A stretch of DNA of 64,000 nt from an uncultured Nitrososphaerota archaeon (GTDB lineage Archaea; Thermoproteota; Nitrososphaeria; Nitrososphaerales; Nitrosopumilaceae), in NCBI GenBank assembly GCA_963701075.1, contig OY969559.1, forward strand, positions 1,376,001 through 1,440,000, given 5' to 3'. The notes beneath the pieces are model-generated. The model saw nothing but the letters and a program-made list of their open reading frames with translations, had not been told where the DNA came from and made no database searches. The translations under genes were made by a program, and so were the position numbers. Shown piece after piece: positions 24,666-52,067 of the stretch (the stretch's first letter is position 1; the number at the start of each line of letters is the position of its first letter).

Positions 24666-26342
24666 ATGGAAATATCAAGTAGAAATGTAGTTGAAGGTCC
24701 TTCAAGAGCACCCCATAGAGCCATGTACAAGGCCATGGGGTTAACAGATAATGATCTTGGAAAACCATTCGTAGGAGTATCGCATACAGGTAATGAAGCC
24801 ACTCCATGCAACATTCACCTTGGCAGATTAGCCCTGCATGCAAAGGCAGGGGTTCAGGAATCGGGTGGAACTCCCAGAGAGTTTTCCACAATTGCAGTAA
24901 GTGACGGAATAGCCATGGGTCATGAAGGTATGAAATCTTCTCTAGTCAGTAGAGAAATCATTGCAGACTCTATTGAGTTAATGGTCAGAGCACACCAATA
25001 TGACGGCCTTGTAGGCATAGCAGGTTGTGATAAGAGCCTACCAGGCTCCATGATGGCAATGGCGCGATTAAACATCCCGTCAGTTTTTGTTTACGGCGGA
25101 ACCATAATGCCTGGAATGTATGAAGGAAAGCAGGTTACAATTCAAGATGTATATGAAGCAGTGGGGGTATATGAGGCGGGTCAGTTAACTCTTGAGGCTC
25201 TCAAGAATTTAGAAAATGTTGCTTGCCCAAATGCTGGCTCTTGTGGAGGCATGTATACAGCAAATACCATGGCATCAATTAGTGAGGCCATAGGACTTGC
25301 ATTACCTGGAAGCGCGTCACCTCCTGCAGAAGATCCTAGAAGAGAAAAATTTGTCTACCAGAGCGGCAAGGCAGTGATGAATTTACTCGAAAATGGAATA
25401 AGGCCCAAAGACATTCTTACCTACGAGGCATTTGAAAACGCAATAACTATTGCAAATGCCATAGGGGGTTCTACAAATGCGGTGTTACATCTTCTAGCTT
25501 TATCCAGAGAAATTGGCGTAAACCTAACTCTTGAAGATTTTGAAAAAATAAGAAAACGAACACCTCATATTGCAGATATGAGGCCTGGAGGATTTTATGT
25601 CATGCTAGATCTTGACAAGATAGGTGGAATTCCACTAGTAATGAAGACTCTGCAGAAAAAGAGCCTCTTAAATGAAAGTGCTTTAACTGTAACAGGAAAG
25701 ACCTTGAAGCAAAATCTAGATTCAATACAACTTTCATTGAATGAAAATCAGAAAGTTCTAAGGTCTATAGAAACACCAATTCACGATGTAGGAACTCTAA
25801 CAATACTTAGAGGGTCACTTGCTCCAGAGGGAGCAGTTGTAAAAGTAGCTGGAATGCATACAACAGAGTTCATAGGTAAAGCTAAAGTATTTGATAGGGA
25901 AGAAGATGCGTTTGATGCAATATCAAAACGTCAGATTAAAGAAAACGACGTGGTCATAATCAGATATGAAGGTCCAAAGGGAGGTCCTGGCATGCGAGAG
26001 ATGCTTGGCGTCACAGCAGCTCTGGTTGGACAAAAATTAGGCGAAAAAGTAGCTCTTGTTACAGACGGAAGATTCTCAGGTGCCACCCGCGGTTTGATGA
26101 TAGGACATGTTTCCCCAGAAGCTGCAATGGGTGGAAATATCGCACTGGTAAATGACGGTGATGAAATTAGAATCAACATAGAAAAAAATAGCATCGATGT
26201 CATGGTACCTGAAACAGATCTTGCTGAAAGAAGAAAACAATGGAGACCAAGAAAACCGAATTATGAAAAAGGTGCATTGGCAAAATTTGCCTCACTTGTT
26301 GCTTCCGCATCCGAAGGAGCAATAACAAAACCCAAATGGTAA
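24666..26342 (+). CDS. ilvD: Dihydroxy-acid dehydratase
   Basis: [51 protein letters not shown]. Confidence 0.97.
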
Positions 26343-45856: not shown

Positions 45857-46702
45857 TTGGAAGAAGATATGGACTGGGGATTAAAAAATCGCCTTGCGCG
45901 GATAATAAAACCTCATGACAAACGAGGAGTAATGTTGGCAGTAGACCATGGTTATTTCCTAGGTCCTACAGAAAGACTCGAGGAGCCAAGAAAGACCATT
46001 GCTCCATTGTTGCCTCATGCAGACTCGTTAATGCTAACACGTGGTGTTCTAAGAACATCGGTAGATGCTACATATCCAGTACCAGTAGTGCTCAGAGTTT
46101 CAGGTGGCTCTAGCATAATTGGCAAGGATTTGTCAAATGAAAAGATAACAACATCGATAAAAGACGCAATCAAGTTGAATGTATCAGCACTTGCAATGTC
46201 AATATTTGTAGGTGCCCCCCACGAACATGAATCTCTTGTAAGCCTTGGCAATTTAGTAAACGAAGGCGAAGAGTATGGAATACCAGTTCTTGCAGTTACT
46301 GCTGTAGGAAAAGAATTAGAAAAGCGAGACGCTCGATATTTGGGGCTTGCATGTAGAATAGCTGCTGAATTCGGAGCACATTTAGTTAAGACATATTATT
46401 GCGAGAATTTTGATAAAGTTGTAAGGGCTTGTCCTGTGCCAGTGATAATTGCAGGAGGACCAAAATTAGCAACAGAATTAGATGCGCTAAAACTTACTTT
46501 TGACGCCATACAATCAGGCGCTGCAGGAGTAGACATGGGAAGAAACATTTGGCAATCAGATTACCCGGTTGCAATGATTAAAGCTGTAAAAGCAATTGTA
46601 CATCAAAATGCAACAGTAAAGGAAGCCCATGAAATGTTCAATATGCTAAAGGGAACCAAAAAACCAGTTAAACCGGTCATTAGATCTAATCAGAAATCTT
46701 AG
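45857..46702 (+). CDS. lsrF: LsrF-like class I aldolase/thiolase
   Basis: MDWGLKNRL, LAVDHGYF.GPT, VKTYYC, PVIIAGG, GVDMGRNIWQ. Confidence 0.82.
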   Translation: MEEDMDWGLKNRLARIIKPHDKRGVMLAVDHGYFLGPTERLEEPRKTIAPLLPHADSLMLTRGVLRTSVDATYPVPVVLRVSGGSSIIGKDLSNEKITTSIKDAIKLNVSALAMSIFVGAPHEHESLVSLGNLVNEGEEYGIPVLAVTAVGKELEKRDARYLGLACRIAAEFGAHLVKTYYCENFDKVVRACPVPVIIAGGPKLATELDALKLTFDAIQSGAAGVDMGRNIWQSDYPVAMIKAVKAIVHQNATVKEAHEMFNMLKGTKKPVKPVIRSNQKS

Positions 46703-47138
46703 ACAAGTGCACGTGTACAATCTTCCATTTTTGTGACTTGACTAGAACAAATGTTCCTCTGCTATCCATTGATAGATGTTGGCCTCTAAAGCTATAATTA
46801 TCGACTATCATTCCTGTTTGTCTTATAGTAAAAGTTACCACCGCGCAGTTATCAAATATGTCCACTCGTGTATTTTTAATTTCATGTTCATAGTCAGATA
46901 TACTGACAAATCTTAGCTGCTGCAATGCAATAGTAGTAGCATAGTCTTTCAAGTCAAATGGAGGAACATCGCCATAACTTGAAAATCTCGGATCATCAAG
47001 CTGGATTGCACTTAGGGGAGCCAAGTTCTTTGTTTTACCAGAATCAAAGAAAGTTGCAATTACGTCTATTATCTCGTCTTTGTCTCCCAAAATCGATCTT
47101 GATTGAGATAATTCTAGTTTAAGTCTTGTGAAACGCAA
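46686..47138 (-). CDS. NTF2/SnoaL-like domain protein
   Basis: RGTFVLVK...WKIVHVHLS; start uncertain. Confidence 0.75.
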   Translation of the reverse strand: MRFTRLKLELSQSRSILGDKDEIIDVIATFFDSGKTKNLAPLSAIQLDDPRFSSYGDVPPFDLKDYATTIALQQLRFVSISDYEHEIKNTRVDIFDNCAVVTFTIRQTGMIVDNYSFRGQHLSMDSRGTFVLVKSQKWKIVHVHLSKISD

Positions 47139-47219
47139 GTCAAATCTGTCTCTGGTATTGAAATATTCACGGGGCGATAGCGCGTTTTCTAATAATTTTG
47201 TTCAATTTCACTAGTAATA

Positions 47220-47227
47220 TTTATAAA
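47220..47227 (+). promoter_or_regulatory. Archaeal TATA box of the ilvB operon
   Basis: TTTATAAA about 31 nt before the leader ATG. Confidence 0.55.
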
Positions 47228-47258
47228 TTATTTCATATGAAAAATCATAGGGACTAAA

Positions 47259-47321
47259 ATGAAGTTAGGAGGCTCGGCAAGCATTTCTGGTATTCTGCTG
47301 CTAGTCGACCTTATGCTGTAG
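47259..47321 (+). CDS. Putative ilv/leu operon leader peptide MKLGGSASISGILLLVDLML
   Basis: 9 of 20 codons are Ile/Leu/Val, including a consecutive ILLLV run; overlaps alternative hairpins; ends 32 nt before ilvB. Confidence 0.6.
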   Translation: MKLGGSASISGILLLVDLML

Positions 47322-47353
47322 GCTACAGCAAGTTAGTCGGAGTTAGAAAAATT

Positions 47354-49042
47354 ATGGAAAAAATGTCAGGTGCTAGATCTTTAATGGTTGCCCTCGAGAA
47401 AGAGGGTGCAAACATAGTCTTTGGACTACCCGGAGGAGCAAATCTTCCAATTTACGATGAGCTCTACAAGAGCAACATCAGACACATTCTTGTTCGACAT
47501 GAACAATCTGCATCACATATGGCAGACGGTTTTGGCAGAGTCAGCAGAAGACCAGGAGTATGTTTTGCAACTTCAGGCCCAGGGGCAACAAATATTGTAA
47601 CAGGCATTGCAACTGCTCAGGCAGATTCGTCCCCAATGATTGCAATTACTGGACAAGTTCCAACAAAAATGATTGGAAGAGACGCTTTTCAGGAAAGCGA
47701 CATAATTGGAATTTCAAATCCCATAGTAAAATATGCATTTCAACCCATGACAGCAGCAGAAGTTCCCGAAGTAGTAAAAAAGGCATTTTACATTTCATCC
47801 ACCGGCAGACCAGGTCCAGTGCTAATTGACATTCCAAAAGATGTTCAACAAAACGAAGCAGAGATTACATTTCCTTCAGAAGTAAAGATAAGAGGATATC
47901 ATCCATGGGTAGATCCCGACATTAGAGAAATCGAGCGAGCCATAGATATGTTACTTGCTTCTGAAAAGCCAGTAATCTTGGCAGGAGGCGGAGTGATAAT
48001 TTCAGGAGCTTTTGCAGAACTTCAATCAATAGCAGAATTACTCATGATTCCAGTAGTAACAACATTCAAAGGAAAAGGTTCGTTTCCAGAAAATCACCCT
48101 CTTTCCCTAGGACCCATAGGAATGCACGGTCATGCAGAAGCTAACAAGATCATGGTAGAAGCTGATTGCGTGCTTGCATGTGGTTCTAGGTTTTCAGATA
48201 GATCTGTTGGAACGTTTGAAGAATTTGAAAGAAATCTTAAGATAATACACATGGATGTAGACCCAGCCGAGATAGGAAAGAACCAGACTACTCACATAGC
48301 AGTAGTAGGTGACATAAAGGCCTCCCTTAGGATAATGGTAAAAATGCTAATCCAGAAAGCCATCAAGCGGGCCGGAGACAATCCATGGCTAAAACGTGTC
48401 AATGAGACAAGAGAATACTTTAGACAGAATCTAAAACTTCATTCACACCCATTAGGAGCTGCAAAGGTTCTAAGAAAATTAAGAGAAGTGCTTCCCCCGC
48501 AATCAATTGTAACAACTGAAGTAGGCCAACATCAGATGTGGGCATCGTTATTTTTTGATGTAATACATCCTGGAACTTTCTTTAGTTCCACCGGTCTTGG
48601 CACAATGGGGTGGGGATTTCCAGCTGCGATTGGTGCCAAAGCTGCAAGACCAGATGTTCCAGTAGTGGATATAGCAGGAGAGGGAAGTTTCAACATGACT
48701 GAAAATTCACTTGCGGTCTCAGTTCTAGATGACTTGCCTGTGATAGTATTTTTGTTAAACAACTTTTCACTTGGAATGGTTGCCCAGTGGCAGAGAACAT
48801 TCTACGACAGACGCATGATTGGAATAGACCTTAAAAATTGTCCAGACTATGTCAAGTCAGCTGAATCTTACGGAGCTCAGGGCATAAGAGCCCAAAGCAT
48901 AGACGAGATTGGAAAGGCAGTTCAGACAGCGCTTAAAAGCAATATAGCGACAGTCATAGACATTCCAATTGATCCTCAAGAGGACGTCTTACCATTTGTT
49001 GCTCCTGGAACATCTCTCAAAGACATGATTTTACCATCCTAG
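47354..49042 (+). CDS. ilvB: Acetolactate synthase, large subunit
   Basis: FGLPGG, RHEQ, TSGPGATN, DAFQE, GRPGPV, VGQHQMW, GLGTMG.G.PAAIG. Confidence 0.96.
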   Translation: MEKMSGARSLMVALEKEGANIVFGLPGGANLPIYDELYKSNIRHILVRHEQSASHMADGFGRVSRRPGVCFATSGPGATNIVTGIATAQADSSPMIAITGQVPTKMIGRDAFQESDIIGISNPIVKYAFQPMTAAEVPEVVKKAFYISSTGRPGPVLIDIPKDVQQNEAEITFPSEVKIRGYHPWVDPDIREIERAIDMLLASEKPVILAGGGVIISGAFAELQSIAELLMIPVVTTFKGKGSFPENHPLSLGPIGMHGHAEANKIMVEADCVLACGSRFSDRSVGTFEEFERNLKIIHMDVDPAEIGKNQTTHIAVVGDIKASLRIMVKMLIQKAIKRAGDNPWLKRVNETREYFRQNLKLHSHPLGAAKVLRKLREVLPPQSIVTTEVGQHQMWASLFFDVIHPGTFFSSTGLGTMGWGFPAAIGAKAARPDVPVVDIAGEGSFNMTENSLAVSVLDDLPVIVFLLNNFSLGMVAQWQRTFYDRRMIGIDLKNCPDYVKSAESYGAQGIRAQSIDEIGKAVQTALKSNIATVIDIPIDPQEDVLPFVAPGTSLKDMILPS

Positions 49043-49050
49043 TGATACCC

Positions 49051-49542
49051 ATGTGGTCTATAATTTCCGTACTTGTAGAAAATAAACCCGGAGTACTATT
49101 CAAAGTCACTAATCTCTTCAGATCAAGAAATTACAACATAGATAGCATATCTGTTGGCATAACAGAGAATCCAGAGTTTTCCAGGATGACCATCACAACA
49201 TCAGCTGACGAGAAACAACTCAATCAAATAATCAAACAACTTGACAAGATGATAGATACTGTAGAGGTAAAACTATTAGATGAGAAAAAGAGCATATACC
49301 GCGAACTGGTATTAATGAAGATAAAAATAACAAAACCATCAGACATAATGGAAGTAACTGATCTTGCAAATGCTTTCAAATGTAATGTTCACGATGTACG
49401 AAAATCATCAATTATTGTTGAAATTACAGCAACTCCTGACAGGATCAATGCATTTGAAGATCTTGTGAGAGGATATGGCATACTTGAGATAGCAAGAACC
49501 GGAATGTGTGCACTTGAGAGAGGAGTAGGCAATGAAAGTTAG
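49051..49542 (+). CDS. ilvN: Acetolactate synthase, small regulatory subunit
   Basis: VENKPGVL..V..LF..R.YNIDS, RELVLMK, EIARTG; alternative start at 49042. Confidence 0.94.
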   Translation: MWSIISVLVENKPGVLFKVTNLFRSRNYNIDSISVGITENPEFSRMTITTSADEKQLNQIIKQLDKMIDTVEVKLLDEKKSIYRELVLMKIKITKPSDIMEVTDLANAFKCNVHDVRKSSIIVEITATPDRINAFEDLVRGYGILEIARTGMCALERGVGNES

Positions 49543-51050
49543 AATTTTTGATACCACTTTAAGAGACGGCGAACAAACGCCGGGCATTGCTCTAACCCCA
49601 GAGCAAAAACTTGCAATTGCTCAAAAGTTAGATGAATTGGGTGTGGATGCAATAGAAGCAGGCTTTCCAATAATCTCCGATGGCGAAAGAAAAGCAGTAA
49701 AGGACATAGCTCATGCGGGCCTTAAAGCAGAGATTTGCGGTTTGGCAAGAACTGAAAAAAAAGACATTGATGCTGCAGTAGCAGCCGGGTTAAAATACAT
49801 ACACACATTCATTGCAACGTCTGACATTCACCTAAAATACAAACTCAAACTCACACGTGAACAGGCAGTTGCAAAAGCAGTGGAAGCAGTAGAGTATGCA
49901 AAATCACTTGGATTGCAAGTGGAATTTTCTGCAGAAGATGCAACCAGAACTGATAGAGAATTCCTCAAAAAAGTTTTCAGAGCAGTTACAGAGGCCGGCA
50001 CTGACAGAATAGACATACCAGACACTGTTGGCTATTCAACCCCCCAATATATCGCCGAGATTACAAAGGATACAATAGATGCCACTCATTTGCCCGTCAG
50101 CGTTCATTGCCACAATGACTTTGGATTAGCTGTAGCAAATGCGATATCTGCAATTCAAGCAGGTGCACAGTGTGCACATGTTACAATAAATGGCATTGGA
50201 GAGAGAGCTGGCAATGCTTCACTTGAAGAATTTGTCATGGCACTACAATGTCTACAATTTGACAAAAAGTTTGAGACAAATATCAATACCAAGCTTCTCT
50301 ATGAGACATCACGCTACGTTTCAAAAATTGTTGGAGTTCAAGTCCAACCAAACAAGGCCATAGTTGGAGAAAATGCCTTTGGACATGAATCTGGAATTCA
50401 CACACATGGTGTATTGAGTAACCCATTAACGTATGAGCCGATTAGCCCAGAACTTGTAGGTAGGACACGCTGGTTCCAGGTAGGAAAACACGCTGGGGCA
50501 CACGGTGTTGCTGCAATGTTAGAAGAATACGGCATTCAACCGTCAAAGGAGCAGACACATGAGATCCTAGAGAGGATCAAGAAATTGGGAGACCAAGGAA
50601 AACATGTAACAGATGTGGAGTTGCTATCAATATCAGGCGAAGTAATGCATCAGGAAGGATTGAAAAGACTAGTACACCTAACAGGATTTTCTGTGTCTAC
50701 TGGAATGGGCAATATGCCGTATGCATTTGTCAAGTTAAACATAGAGGGAAAAGACTTCATAGGAACAGATTATGGTGTTGGACCTGTAGATGCATCAATC
50801 AATGCAATACAAAAGATTACAGGCGAAATTGACAAAGTTAGGATAAAAGAATACAAGTCTAGATTCAATTTCTGGCGGATCAGAGGCGTTATGCGAAGTA
50901 ACAATCAAGGTAGAGGACGTATATGGAAACCAAGCTTCTGCAAAATCCATTGGTGAAGATATCGTAATCACCAGCGTTCAAGCCATGATTGAGGGCATAA
51001 ACAGAATAATGCTCAAAAAAATTCTCAAACAAAAAAACTTGGGACACTAG
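49532..51050 (+). CDS. leuA: 2-isopropylmalate synthase/citramalate synthase family protein, with one extra T at 50858 (probable sequencing error)
   Basis: DTTLRDGEQ, HCHNDFGLA, GIGERAGN, HESGIH, G.GPVDA; repaired C-terminus EYKLDSISGGSEALCEV...; stop abuts leuB. Confidence 0.87.
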
Positions 51051-52067
51051 ATGTATAAGATATCCCTCATAACTGGAGACGGCATAGGTCCTGAACTATC
51101 AGAATCTGTTACAGATATGCTACACGCTATAAGCGACAAGATTGGGTTAAAGTTAGAAATCAATACTGTTGAAGCCGGCGATGGTGCATTAAAAAAAACA
51201 GGCAAGGCGCTTCCTGATTCAACTTTTGATACAATAAAAAAATCTGATGCATGTCTAAAAGCCCCAGTAGGAGAAAGTGCGGCAGATGTGATTGTGTTTC
51301 TACGAAGAGCATTGGATCTTTATGCCAACATAAGACCGGCAAAATCATATCCCAACATGCCATCCCTTAAAGAAAACATTGATCTGGTCATAGTAAGAGA
51401 AAACACAGAAGATCTCTACACAGGAATGGAGTTCGATATTGGCAATTCTGCAGTTGCATTAAGAACCATATCTGAATACGCATCAAAACGCATTGCAAAA
51501 TACGCTTGTATTACTGCAGGCCAAAGAAATGGACAAAGAAAAGTAACTTGCGTTCACAAATCAAATGTTATGAGAAAAACAGATGGCCTTTTTGCAAGAT
51601 CATGTGCTCAGGTAGCAAATGAATTCCAAGATATCATGTTTGAACAGATGTATGTGGACGCATGTGCCATGAACCTCATAAGACAGCCAGAATCTTTTGA
51701 TGTCATAGTGACAACTAACTTGTTTGGAGACATCCTATCTGACGAAGCAGCCCAAGTGGTAGGTGGGCTTGGGATGGCACCAGCAGTGAACATAGGAGAC
51801 AGTTTTGCCTTGTTTGAGCCTGTTCACGGAGCAGCCTTTGACATTGCTGGAAAGCAGATTGCCAATCCATCTTCTTTTATCTTATCTGCAAAAATGATGT
51901 TTGAATGGCTAGGTATGAAAAACAACGACTCGGCATCTTTTGCAGTAGCAAAAAAGATAGAAGAAGCTGTCTATAGCGTTGTAAGCGAAGGTATCAAGAC
52001 AAAAGACATTGGTGGAGACAAAACCACCAAAGAGTTCACCCAACAGGTAATCTCAAAACTTATTTGA
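51051..52067 (+). CDS. leuB: 3-isopropylmalate dehydrogenase family protein
   Basis: GDGIGPE, LYANIRP, RENTE..Y, HKSNV, NLFGDILSD, FEPVHG. Confidence 0.88.
   Translation: MYKISLITGDGIGPELSESVTDMLHAISDKIGLKLEINTVEAGDGALKKTGKALPDSTFDTIKKSDACLKAPVGESAADVIVFLRRALDLYANIRPAKSYPNMPSLKENIDLVIVRENTEDLYTGMEFDIGNSAVALRTISEYASKRIAKYACITAGQRNGQRKVTCVHKSNVMRKTDGLFARSCAQVANEFQDIMFEQMYVDACAMNLIRQPESFDVIVTTNLFGDILSDEAAQVVGGLGMAPAVNIGDSFALFEPVHGAAFDIAGKQIANPSSFILSAKMMFEWLGMKNNDSASFAVAKKIEEAVYSVVSEGIKTKDIGGDKTTKEFTQQVISKLI

Follow-up and report, generated by a model that had tools for sequence, protein, structure and literature searches.

The leader upstream of ilvB

We analyzed a 64,000-nucleotide (nt) stretch of contig OY969559.1 (the window), part of the 1.92-Mb, single-contig genome of an ammonia-oxidising archaeon, and followed up a prediction that an Ile/Leu/Val-rich leader peptide with alternative hairpins precedes the operon ilvB-ilvN-leuA-leuB (47354-52067). 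The leader element lies between a divergent 150-codon open reading frame (ORF; 46686-47138) and the operon. Its parts, with helices named P0, P1 and P2, and the genes downstream are as follows (positions are those of the window).

47220-47227, + strand: TATA box of the leader promoter, TTTATAAA, read from the sequence
47252-47257, + strand: 5' arm of P0, the closing helix; pairs with 47333-47338 (pair probability of 0.97 in 47249-47360)
47259-47321, + strand: leader ORF, 20 codons plus TAG, 9 of them Ile/Leu/Val codons, without a protein annotation
47274-47283, + strand: 5' arm of P1; pairs with 47299-47308 and is extended by 47269-47272 with 47309-47312 in the minimum free energy fold
47292-47318, + strand: control codons I-L-L-L-V-D-L-M-L; 47299-47308 doubles as the 3' arm of P1
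47314-47330, + strand: hairpin P2, 7 bp, over the last codon and the stop (pair probability of 0.99)
47333-47342, + strand: 3' arm of P0, partner of the alternative helix (47336-47340), and GGAG resembling a Shine-Dalgarno (SD) sequence (47339-47342); no U run longer than 2 from the stop to the ilvB start
47354-49042, + strand: ilvB, acetolactate synthase large subunit, first gene of the operon (TIGR00118, 709.6 bits; cut-off, 538)
49042-49542, + strand: ilvN, acetolactate synthase small subunit (TIGR00119, 176.9 bits, over the cut-off)
49532-51050, + strand: leuA-type isopropylmalate/citramalate synthase (NF002085 and TIGR02090, both over the cut-off)
51051-52067, + strand: leuB-type isopropylmalate dehydrogenase (TIGR02088, 402 bits, just below the cut-off of 410)

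The TATA box (in coordinates and in sequence), the 20-codon ORF with its nine branched-chain codons and the run ATT CTG CTG CTA GTC at 47292-47306 agreed, the ORF base for base, with the original prediction, and the profile matches supported its naming of the four downstream genes, the leuB-type gene being slightly under its cut-off. IlvB of the window shares 90% identity with IlvB of Nitrosotalea devanaterra. The exact leader peptide had no match in a collection of 15 billion proteins, and annotation misses the leader because the peptide is absent from protein collections. TATA-like words across 784 genes of the window genome peak 25-34 nt 5' of the ATG, whereas the TATA box of the leader lies 39 nt from its ATG; transcription is therefore predicted to start near 47249-47253, which would give a 5' untranslated region of roughly 6-10 nt and a nearly leaderless start.

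Conservation and codon choice

Taken by itself, the window genome makes a weak case: 3 of its 281 candidate upstream ORFs have 7 Ile/Leu/Val codons among the last 10, which is not beyond chance. It is the conservation seen in the sequences of relatives that puts the element far beyond chance. We scored ilvB loci by a rule that takes an ATG-started ORF of at least 12 codons with its stop 20-85 nt before ilvB, chooses the ORF with the best Ile/Leu/Val count in the last 8 codons and asks for a count of at least 4. The loci came from a set of 30, from 15 thaumarchaeal ones among 80, from 20 in other families and from 80 in the window's family, the last being hand-picked to span genera from about 150 listed among 283 matching genomes; four loci whose upstream region was missing or whose start could not be placed (L008, L017, L044 and L045) and six duplicates were left out. 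Genus and family labels used below (g33, f15 and so on) are codes, and genus names were given by similarity to named records. According to the original prediction, the idea would fail if relatives lacked the upstream ORF and its I/L/V run; across the order, 118 of 135 loci, the window included, had both (32/32 in the window's genus, 70/83 in the rest of its family and 16/20 in other families). The same rule was satisfied by 63 of 890 control genes of the window genome and by 7.3% of 6750 shuffles. Since kin are not independent, the spread over 30 genera weighs more than these locus totals. The leader has 16-21 codons in 100 of the 118 loci, and its stop lies 28-74 nt from ilvB. A TATA-like motif was found 34-39 nt 5' of the leader ATG in 75 of the 118, and 35 had no strict TATA pattern at 28-48 nt before it.

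A second sample extended this picture. With a slightly wider search span, 8 of 9 further loci of the family passed. In family f15 (L212-L230), those loci that have a leader share a hairpin after it and a GUUUGUUU-like tail. Outside the order, 4 of 32 loci passed, or 7 of 32 when GTG and TTG starts were allowed; L258, L259 and L272 looked convincing and the remainder were near background. L258 and L259, from another order of the phylum, have TTG-started ORFs that end in V-V-I-L-K and are followed immediately by hairpins of -18 kcal/mol before ilvB. Seven ilvB loci of Methanosarcinales had no Ile/Leu/Val-rich leader within 330 nt; these loci may represent another ilvB copy. Within the window genome, the 281 upstream ORFs and the regions upstream of ilvC, ilvD, trpE, leuC and hisG yielded no Trp-rich, His-rich or second Ile/Leu/Val-rich leader.

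The composition of the leader tails (last 9 codons, weighted by genus) differs from that of membrane helices. The tails are 76% Ile/Leu/Val and 0.8% Phe, compared with 47% and 8.3% in membrane-like windows of the window genome (n = 896), and Ile/Leu/Val account for 94.5% of their hydrophobic residues, compared with 59.5% in membrane segments. Read in the other two frames, the same tail DNA gives 12% and 21% Ile/Leu/Val; the N-terminal part of the leader, which is freely variable, gives 29%. Tails from 15 genera of other families contain no Phe, Met or Gly. Counting back from the stop, the Ile/Leu/Val share over the 118 loci is 0.69 at codon -9, 0.78 at -8, 0.86 at -7, 0.82 at -6, 0.95 at -5, 0.29 at -4, 0.96 at -3, 0.71 at -2 and 0.90 at -1, so that codons -5, -3 and -1 are the best conserved and the run reaches the stop. 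All three end products are coded in 73 of the 118 tails, and Leu plus Val in 41 more. Second codon positions are 78% U and third positions are mixed; Phe, which also has U at the second position, is nearly excluded. The run always ends at the stop. The tails show the pattern of control codons, with selection on Ile/Leu/Val codons and neither on hydrophobicity nor on U-richness.

We consider it very probable, from these sequence comparisons, that the leader ORF is a ribosome-dwell sensor of Ile, Leu and Val supply for ilvB-ilvN-leuA-leuB, because dwell sensing is the only reading that covers the start, the frame, the stop, the codon choice and the position before ilvB together.

Synonymous codon usage in the tails also differs from that of the window genome. 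Ile codons of the 118 tails are 78% AUU and 10% AUA (39% and 40% in the genome), and CUG plus CUA make up 50% of Leu codons (28% in the genome). ARAGORN found only Leu tRNA anticodons UAG, CAG and GAG in the window genome and none for UUA/UUG, which were possibly missed because of unusual introns.

Eight marine-type genera (L036-L039, L042 and L146-L207) carry a motif, TAAAATT(A/G)TGG, 31-38 nt before the conserved Met of IlvB. All 42 loci with a leader have it, as do 9 of the 13 without one. In 44 of 54 loci the motif starts 31-33 nt before that Met, and because this spacing fits the TATA box of a leaderless mRNA, the motif is possibly a second promoter. In addition, it folds into an A/U-rich hairpin that reaches the SD. 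Only its tail remains in the window's genus, where it overlaps the start codon. Four g33 loci from small genomes (L194, L196, L198 and L199) have no leader ORF, and there the motif reads as a better TATA box, possibly reflecting a switch to constitutive ilvB expression.

As for the surroundings of the leader in the window, the 150-codon ORF on the minus strand (46686-47138), divergent from the leader promoter, had no NCBIfam match at 1e-20. The leuA frame is broken near 50855, and its C-terminal regulatory part runs on in another frame to the leuB start; an aconitase-family gene of the window genome is likewise split (G000:C1:774582-775941), and both breaks are probably assembly errors. Elsewhere in the window, ilvD (24666-26342) directly precedes trpE (26688) on one strand, and the 346-nt gap between them holds no Trp-rich leader.

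Helices, termination signals and models of control

Folded as a whole, the leader of the window genome does not exceed shuffles in stability (z = 0.00). In the free leader (47249-47360), P1, P2 and P0 coexist with pair probabilities of 0.94, 0.99 and 0.97. The pairing of 47274-47283 with 47299-47308 at 9 of 10 positions, with one A-A, had been predicted and was confirmed, as was the perfect 7-bp hairpin at 47314-47330 that spans the stop codon; P0 is an additional helix, absent from that prediction, which closes the free leader. Among 50 leaders that can be placed in register, 86% of 500 cells of P1 were paired, compared with 13-58% when the arms were slid. P1 was more stable than synonymous recodings in the window's genus (mean z, -1.9), as it was in the majority of the family's genera (mean z between -1.8 and -3.4 in eight). 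In six genera, P2 is formed by 5 or more contiguous pairs in 62 of 64 loci, where shuffles gave an expectation of 28; in g33 this holds for only 2 of 16 loci. In other families, 12 of 15 genera have a hairpin at the stop that was better than shuffles (-9 to -19 kcal/mol); it ends before the SD and does not cover it. A helix begins within about 8 nt of the leader stop in most lineages. P0 was not significant in the window's genus (native, -3.8 kcal/mol; swapped, -3.45 kcal/mol; P = 0.10). In g33, the partner of the post-stop segment is the start codon of the leader itself, and the two sides change in concert (native, -6.3 kcal/mol; swapped, -4.2 kcal/mol; 0 of 2000 permutations as low). As a family-wide helix P0 was rejected, being significant only in g33 and in g33 plus g37 (P = 0.10-0.58 in five other groupings). 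What the lineages share in these folding models is a helix that, with no ribosome present, sequesters bases at the stop or immediately after it.

No terminator-like site was found in 47100-47420, and the longest U run after the leader stop is 2, so the predicted lack of an intrinsic terminator held. The accompanying statement that there is no U tract was right for the window's clade and wrong more widely: 71 of the 118 loci have a run of at least U4 after the stop (56% by genus weight, compared with 35% in shuffles). The window genome encodes a gene of the aCPSF1 type (TIGR03675, 820 bits; we take TIGR03675 to be the aCPSF1 family label), and aCPSF1, or FttA, is a homolog of eukaryotic CPSF73. 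According to excerpts of one study (PMC8716108), archaeal terminators are U-rich and mostly have no need of a hairpin, and aCPSF1 terminates on U-rich RNA, the thaumarchaeal ortholog acting likewise; excerpts of another (PMC8448881) describe recruitment of aCPSF1 to promoter-proximal complexes.

The genome shows the ORF with its codon bias and position, the helices and the aCPSF1 gene. From them we tentatively propose a complete mechanism, which we hold at a little under even confidence, in which dwell sensing is coupled to aCPSF1/FttA-dependent premature termination; translation, stalling, the direction of control and the termination step are inferred. The leader ORF would read charged Ile, Leu and Val tRNA on behalf of the operon. 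A ribosome would load at the nearly leaderless AUG and melt P1. When amino acids are plentiful, it would pass the control codons, terminate and depart, and the leader would reclose, with P2 over the stop, P1 re-formed and P0 around the start, and this would impede a second ribosome; RNA polymerase would then cross the 30-60-nt gap ahead of ilvB with no ribosome trailing it, and aCPSF1/FttA would cleave and terminate the transcript. In a shortage, the ribosome would dwell on the last codons, hold the stop helix open and cover the nascent RNA until the ilvB start had been made and loaded, and the operon would be transcribed. Arithmetic from excerpts of a Haloferax study (PMC7261190) indicates that an archaeal ribosome covers about 12 nt past the P-site codon; with that reach, a modelled ribosome on codon -5, -3 or -1 masks the 5' arm of P2. 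As the output of the sensor, aCPSF1-dependent premature termination is tentatively favoured over SD occlusion.

Several findings weigh against this proposal. The leader rule fails in 17 of the 135 loci, and in family f15 only 10 of 30 loci of the second sample pass. P1 covariation amounts to one column of double changes (G-C in 31, A-U in 14), probably the product of one or two events; in g33, g46 and most other families, P1 does not exceed synonymous controls. The enrichment of U after the stop is modest among loci that are not independent, and the window and 12 of the 32 loci of its genus have no U4 tract there; in excerpts of PMC8716108, RNAs without U4 are those that aCPSF1 binds most weakly, which tells against the proposal in the window's clade. 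Modelled stalls at Ile -9 and at Leu -8 to -6 leave P2 largely intact (pair probability of 1.00 at -9 and 0.45 at -7). Moreover, a terminating ribosome masks the same arm of P2, which leaves dwell time as the only basis of the model. Direct evidence that archaea couple transcription to translation is scarce (PMC13681488). Nine RNA runs contained parts of the N. devanaterra locus (L033), and in the four examined, metatranscriptomes from one study, the contigs were of low depth and fell only within ilvB and the gene upstream; they gave no cover of the leader and are uninformative either way.

The same sensor could have a translational output, with the control codons or the post-stop segment pairing with the ilvB SD, a stalled ribosome freeing it and mRNA loss following as secondary polarity; we regard this as possible but rather unlikely. 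The original prediction was of this kind. The complementarity it rested on, of CGAC (47306-47309) to GTCG (47336-47339) next to GGAG (47339-47342), is correct, and the pairing does not simply extend P2, as it had proposed, but is joined to it through a 4x5 internal loop. Its further proposal, that stalling frees the ilvB start, found some support in the window. When a modelled ribosome masked segment 1, 47305-47309 paired with 47336-47340 at 0.90-0.99 and buried the first two G residues of the SD, and with the ribosome at Val -5 these residues were unpaired at 0.86 and 0.82; in free window RNA, however, the alternative helix loses to P1 (0.003, or 0.32 when more ilvB sequence is included). It keeps 4-5 of its 5 pairs in 28 of the 32 loci of the window's genus and in 13 of 14 in g40, and drops to 2-4 pairs in most other genera; it depends on G-U pairing to a U-rich stretch. 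Occlusion would also be consistent with the A/U-rich hairpin of the eight marine-type genera and has a precedent in excerpts on mycobacterial polycysteine leaders (bioRxiv 10.1101/834739). In 10-13 of 30 genera, a ribosome at codons -6 to -3 made the ilvB start more than 1 kcal/mol cheaper to open than one at -14 did, and in 3 genera dearer, but masking more sequence lowers this cost in any case; when the whole leader was folded, stalling did not ease opening (genus mean, 6.8 free and 7.1-7.6 stalled), and in g40, g43 and g37 the sign was reversed, a ribosome on the last codons raising the cost. Against occlusion as a selected function, closure of the ilvB start over 30 genera averaged 1.75 kcal/mol with native codons, 1.93 kcal/mol with tails from other genera and 1.69 kcal/mol with synonymous tails; native tails occluded more than swapped ones in 14 of 30 genera (P = 0.36) and more than synonymous ones in 12 of 30 (P = 0.67). 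A general model in which control codons pair with the SD was rejected on these controls. The modelling thus leaves the CGAC:GUCG switch as a live rival for the window's clade, weakly kept in the genus, and not as the conserved mechanism.

Other explanations change the part played by the hairpin, the ORF or the peptide. The stop hairpin could be a read-through signal, like segment 2:3 of the classical layout, which a ribosome at the stop would melt, exposing RNA to a nuclease or a second helix. Its 5' arm begins at the stop and could be melted in this way, P2 stays intact when the ribosome stalls at -9 to -7 and the opening cost of the ilvB start rises in g6, g17, g12 and g24 when the ribosome reaches the stop; yet a stall at the best-conserved codons (-5, -3 and -1) would melt P2 as well, the freed arm has no conserved downstream partner and the stop-minus-stall difference exceeds +1 kcal/mol in 6-9 of 30 genera and is below -1 kcal/mol in 4-7. 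We hold this explanation to be improbable. We give a little less credence to the ORF as a by-product, its codons imposed by helices or a protein site, or as a coupling device for re-initiation on ilvB without sensing. Control codons do double as helix arms (CTA GTC in P1 and CTG before the stop in P2), the 10-nt motif before ilvB is kept in family loci that have no leader, so that part of the conservation is independent of the ORF, and leucine codon changes in the actinobacterial LEU element are cited as leaving regulation unaffected (PMC1262725, excerpts). Other families nevertheless keep the start, frame, stop and Ile/Leu/Val tail on visibly unrelated nucleotide sequence, the U bias at second codon positions with mixed third positions argues against imposed codons, and re-initiation would be expected to lower ilvB output in a shortage, the wrong sign for a biosynthetic operon. 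A function of the peptide as such, for instance in the membrane or in binding an enzyme as a small protein, is very improbable: its C-terminal half is hydrophobic and many genera have an LLVD/E-like core in common, but the 9-residue hydrophobic run is broken by Asp or Glu in 74 of the 118 loci, Phe, Ala, Gly and Met are almost excluded, unlike in membrane segments, and length and order vary.

Relation to known systems

In Escherichia coli, ivbL of ilvBN, ilvL and leuL are leader-peptide transcription attenuators. The archaeal leader has, as they do, a short conserved ORF between the promoter and the first biosynthetic gene and control codons that match the operon's end products. Alternative helices exist, but they differ by lineage and do not exceed controls as a mutually exclusive antiterminator/terminator pair, P1, P2 and P0 coexisting in the free fold; nor does the SD-burying helix that forms in the window exceed control tails. 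Because an intrinsic terminator is missing, we do not file the leader as a classical attenuator. Excerpts describing bacterial ilvB leaders, among them the ilvBNC/ilvB-II motif of Corynebacterium (PMC10272879 and PMC11857589), report a short Ile/Leu/Val-rich ORF before ilvB with a conserved start and an in-frame stop and helices overlapping the ORF end, all of which the archaeal leader shares. It differs from the bacterial ilvB attenuators in having no hairpin-plus-U terminator and no terminator/antiterminator pair conserved across relatives, and in its TATA promoter, predicted near-leaderless start, stop close to ilvB and lack of Rfam similarity. Rfam gave only two chance matches at 17 bits in 47000-47450 of the window and only one chance match in ten related loci.

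The mycobacterial polycysteine leaders and the LEU element, as described in excerpts (bioRxiv 10.1101/834739 and PMC1262725), resemble the archaeal leader in being the first ORF of the transcript, carrying a run of control codons close to its end, having no intrinsic terminator and possibly pairing control codons with the SD. In comparison, the archaeal SD-blocking helix is short and not above controls, and three amino acids would be read, not one. The favoured model shares its logic with E. coli tna, where a ribosome held at the leader end prevents a termination factor from reaching the RNA. The stalling of TnaC results from a ligand bound in the exit tunnel, and the operon that it induces is catabolic; archaeal stalling would come from a shortage of charged tRNA, and the factor would be aCPSF1/FttA. 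Excerpts of PMC1262725 name this Rho-dependent leader control of tna as a precedent.

Among archaea, the leuA-Halobacteria motif of Rfam (53 positions; its accession is presumably RF03001, the motif name being confirmed) is an RNA motif named after a branched-chain gene and has matches in Haloferax volcanii. It had no match in the window genome, and three haloarchaeal plasmid leuA/cimA loci had neither a match nor a clear leader. Xie and Reeve (2005) reportedly discuss a tiny leader of the Methanothermobacter trp operon, which could lower the novelty of the element described here. The leuA-Halobacteria motif (described in the supplement of PMC5737381) may also have been proposed already as a leader-ORF element, which would have the same effect. 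No archaeal leader-peptide attenuator was found in the literature searched, which did not cover most subscription journals. Excerpts of a 2021 account state that no attenuation was known in archaea (PMC8448881), the word attenuation was not found in the available text of a 2026 termination review (PMC13675443) and Haloferax ribosome profiling, in excerpts, found upstream ORFs with no attenuator role (PMC7261190). The principle is familiar from bacteria, and by sequence the archaeal element is real, conserved and unannotated, with a predicted function.

It is conceivable, although we lean somewhat against it, that the leader represents true transcription attenuation in archaea without an intrinsic terminator, in which the dwell of a single ribosome gates cleavage by aCPSF1/FttA, and that this control is ancestral to the order and extends to at least one other lineage of the phylum (L258 and L259). 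If so, the leader would naturally serve to report on how archaea couple transcription to translation. As an element of 100 nt found across globally abundant ammonia oxidisers, it is a small, mutable test object, and it could show how archaea regulate after initiation and whether the ribosome gates the aCPSF1 nuclease as it gates Rho in bacteria.

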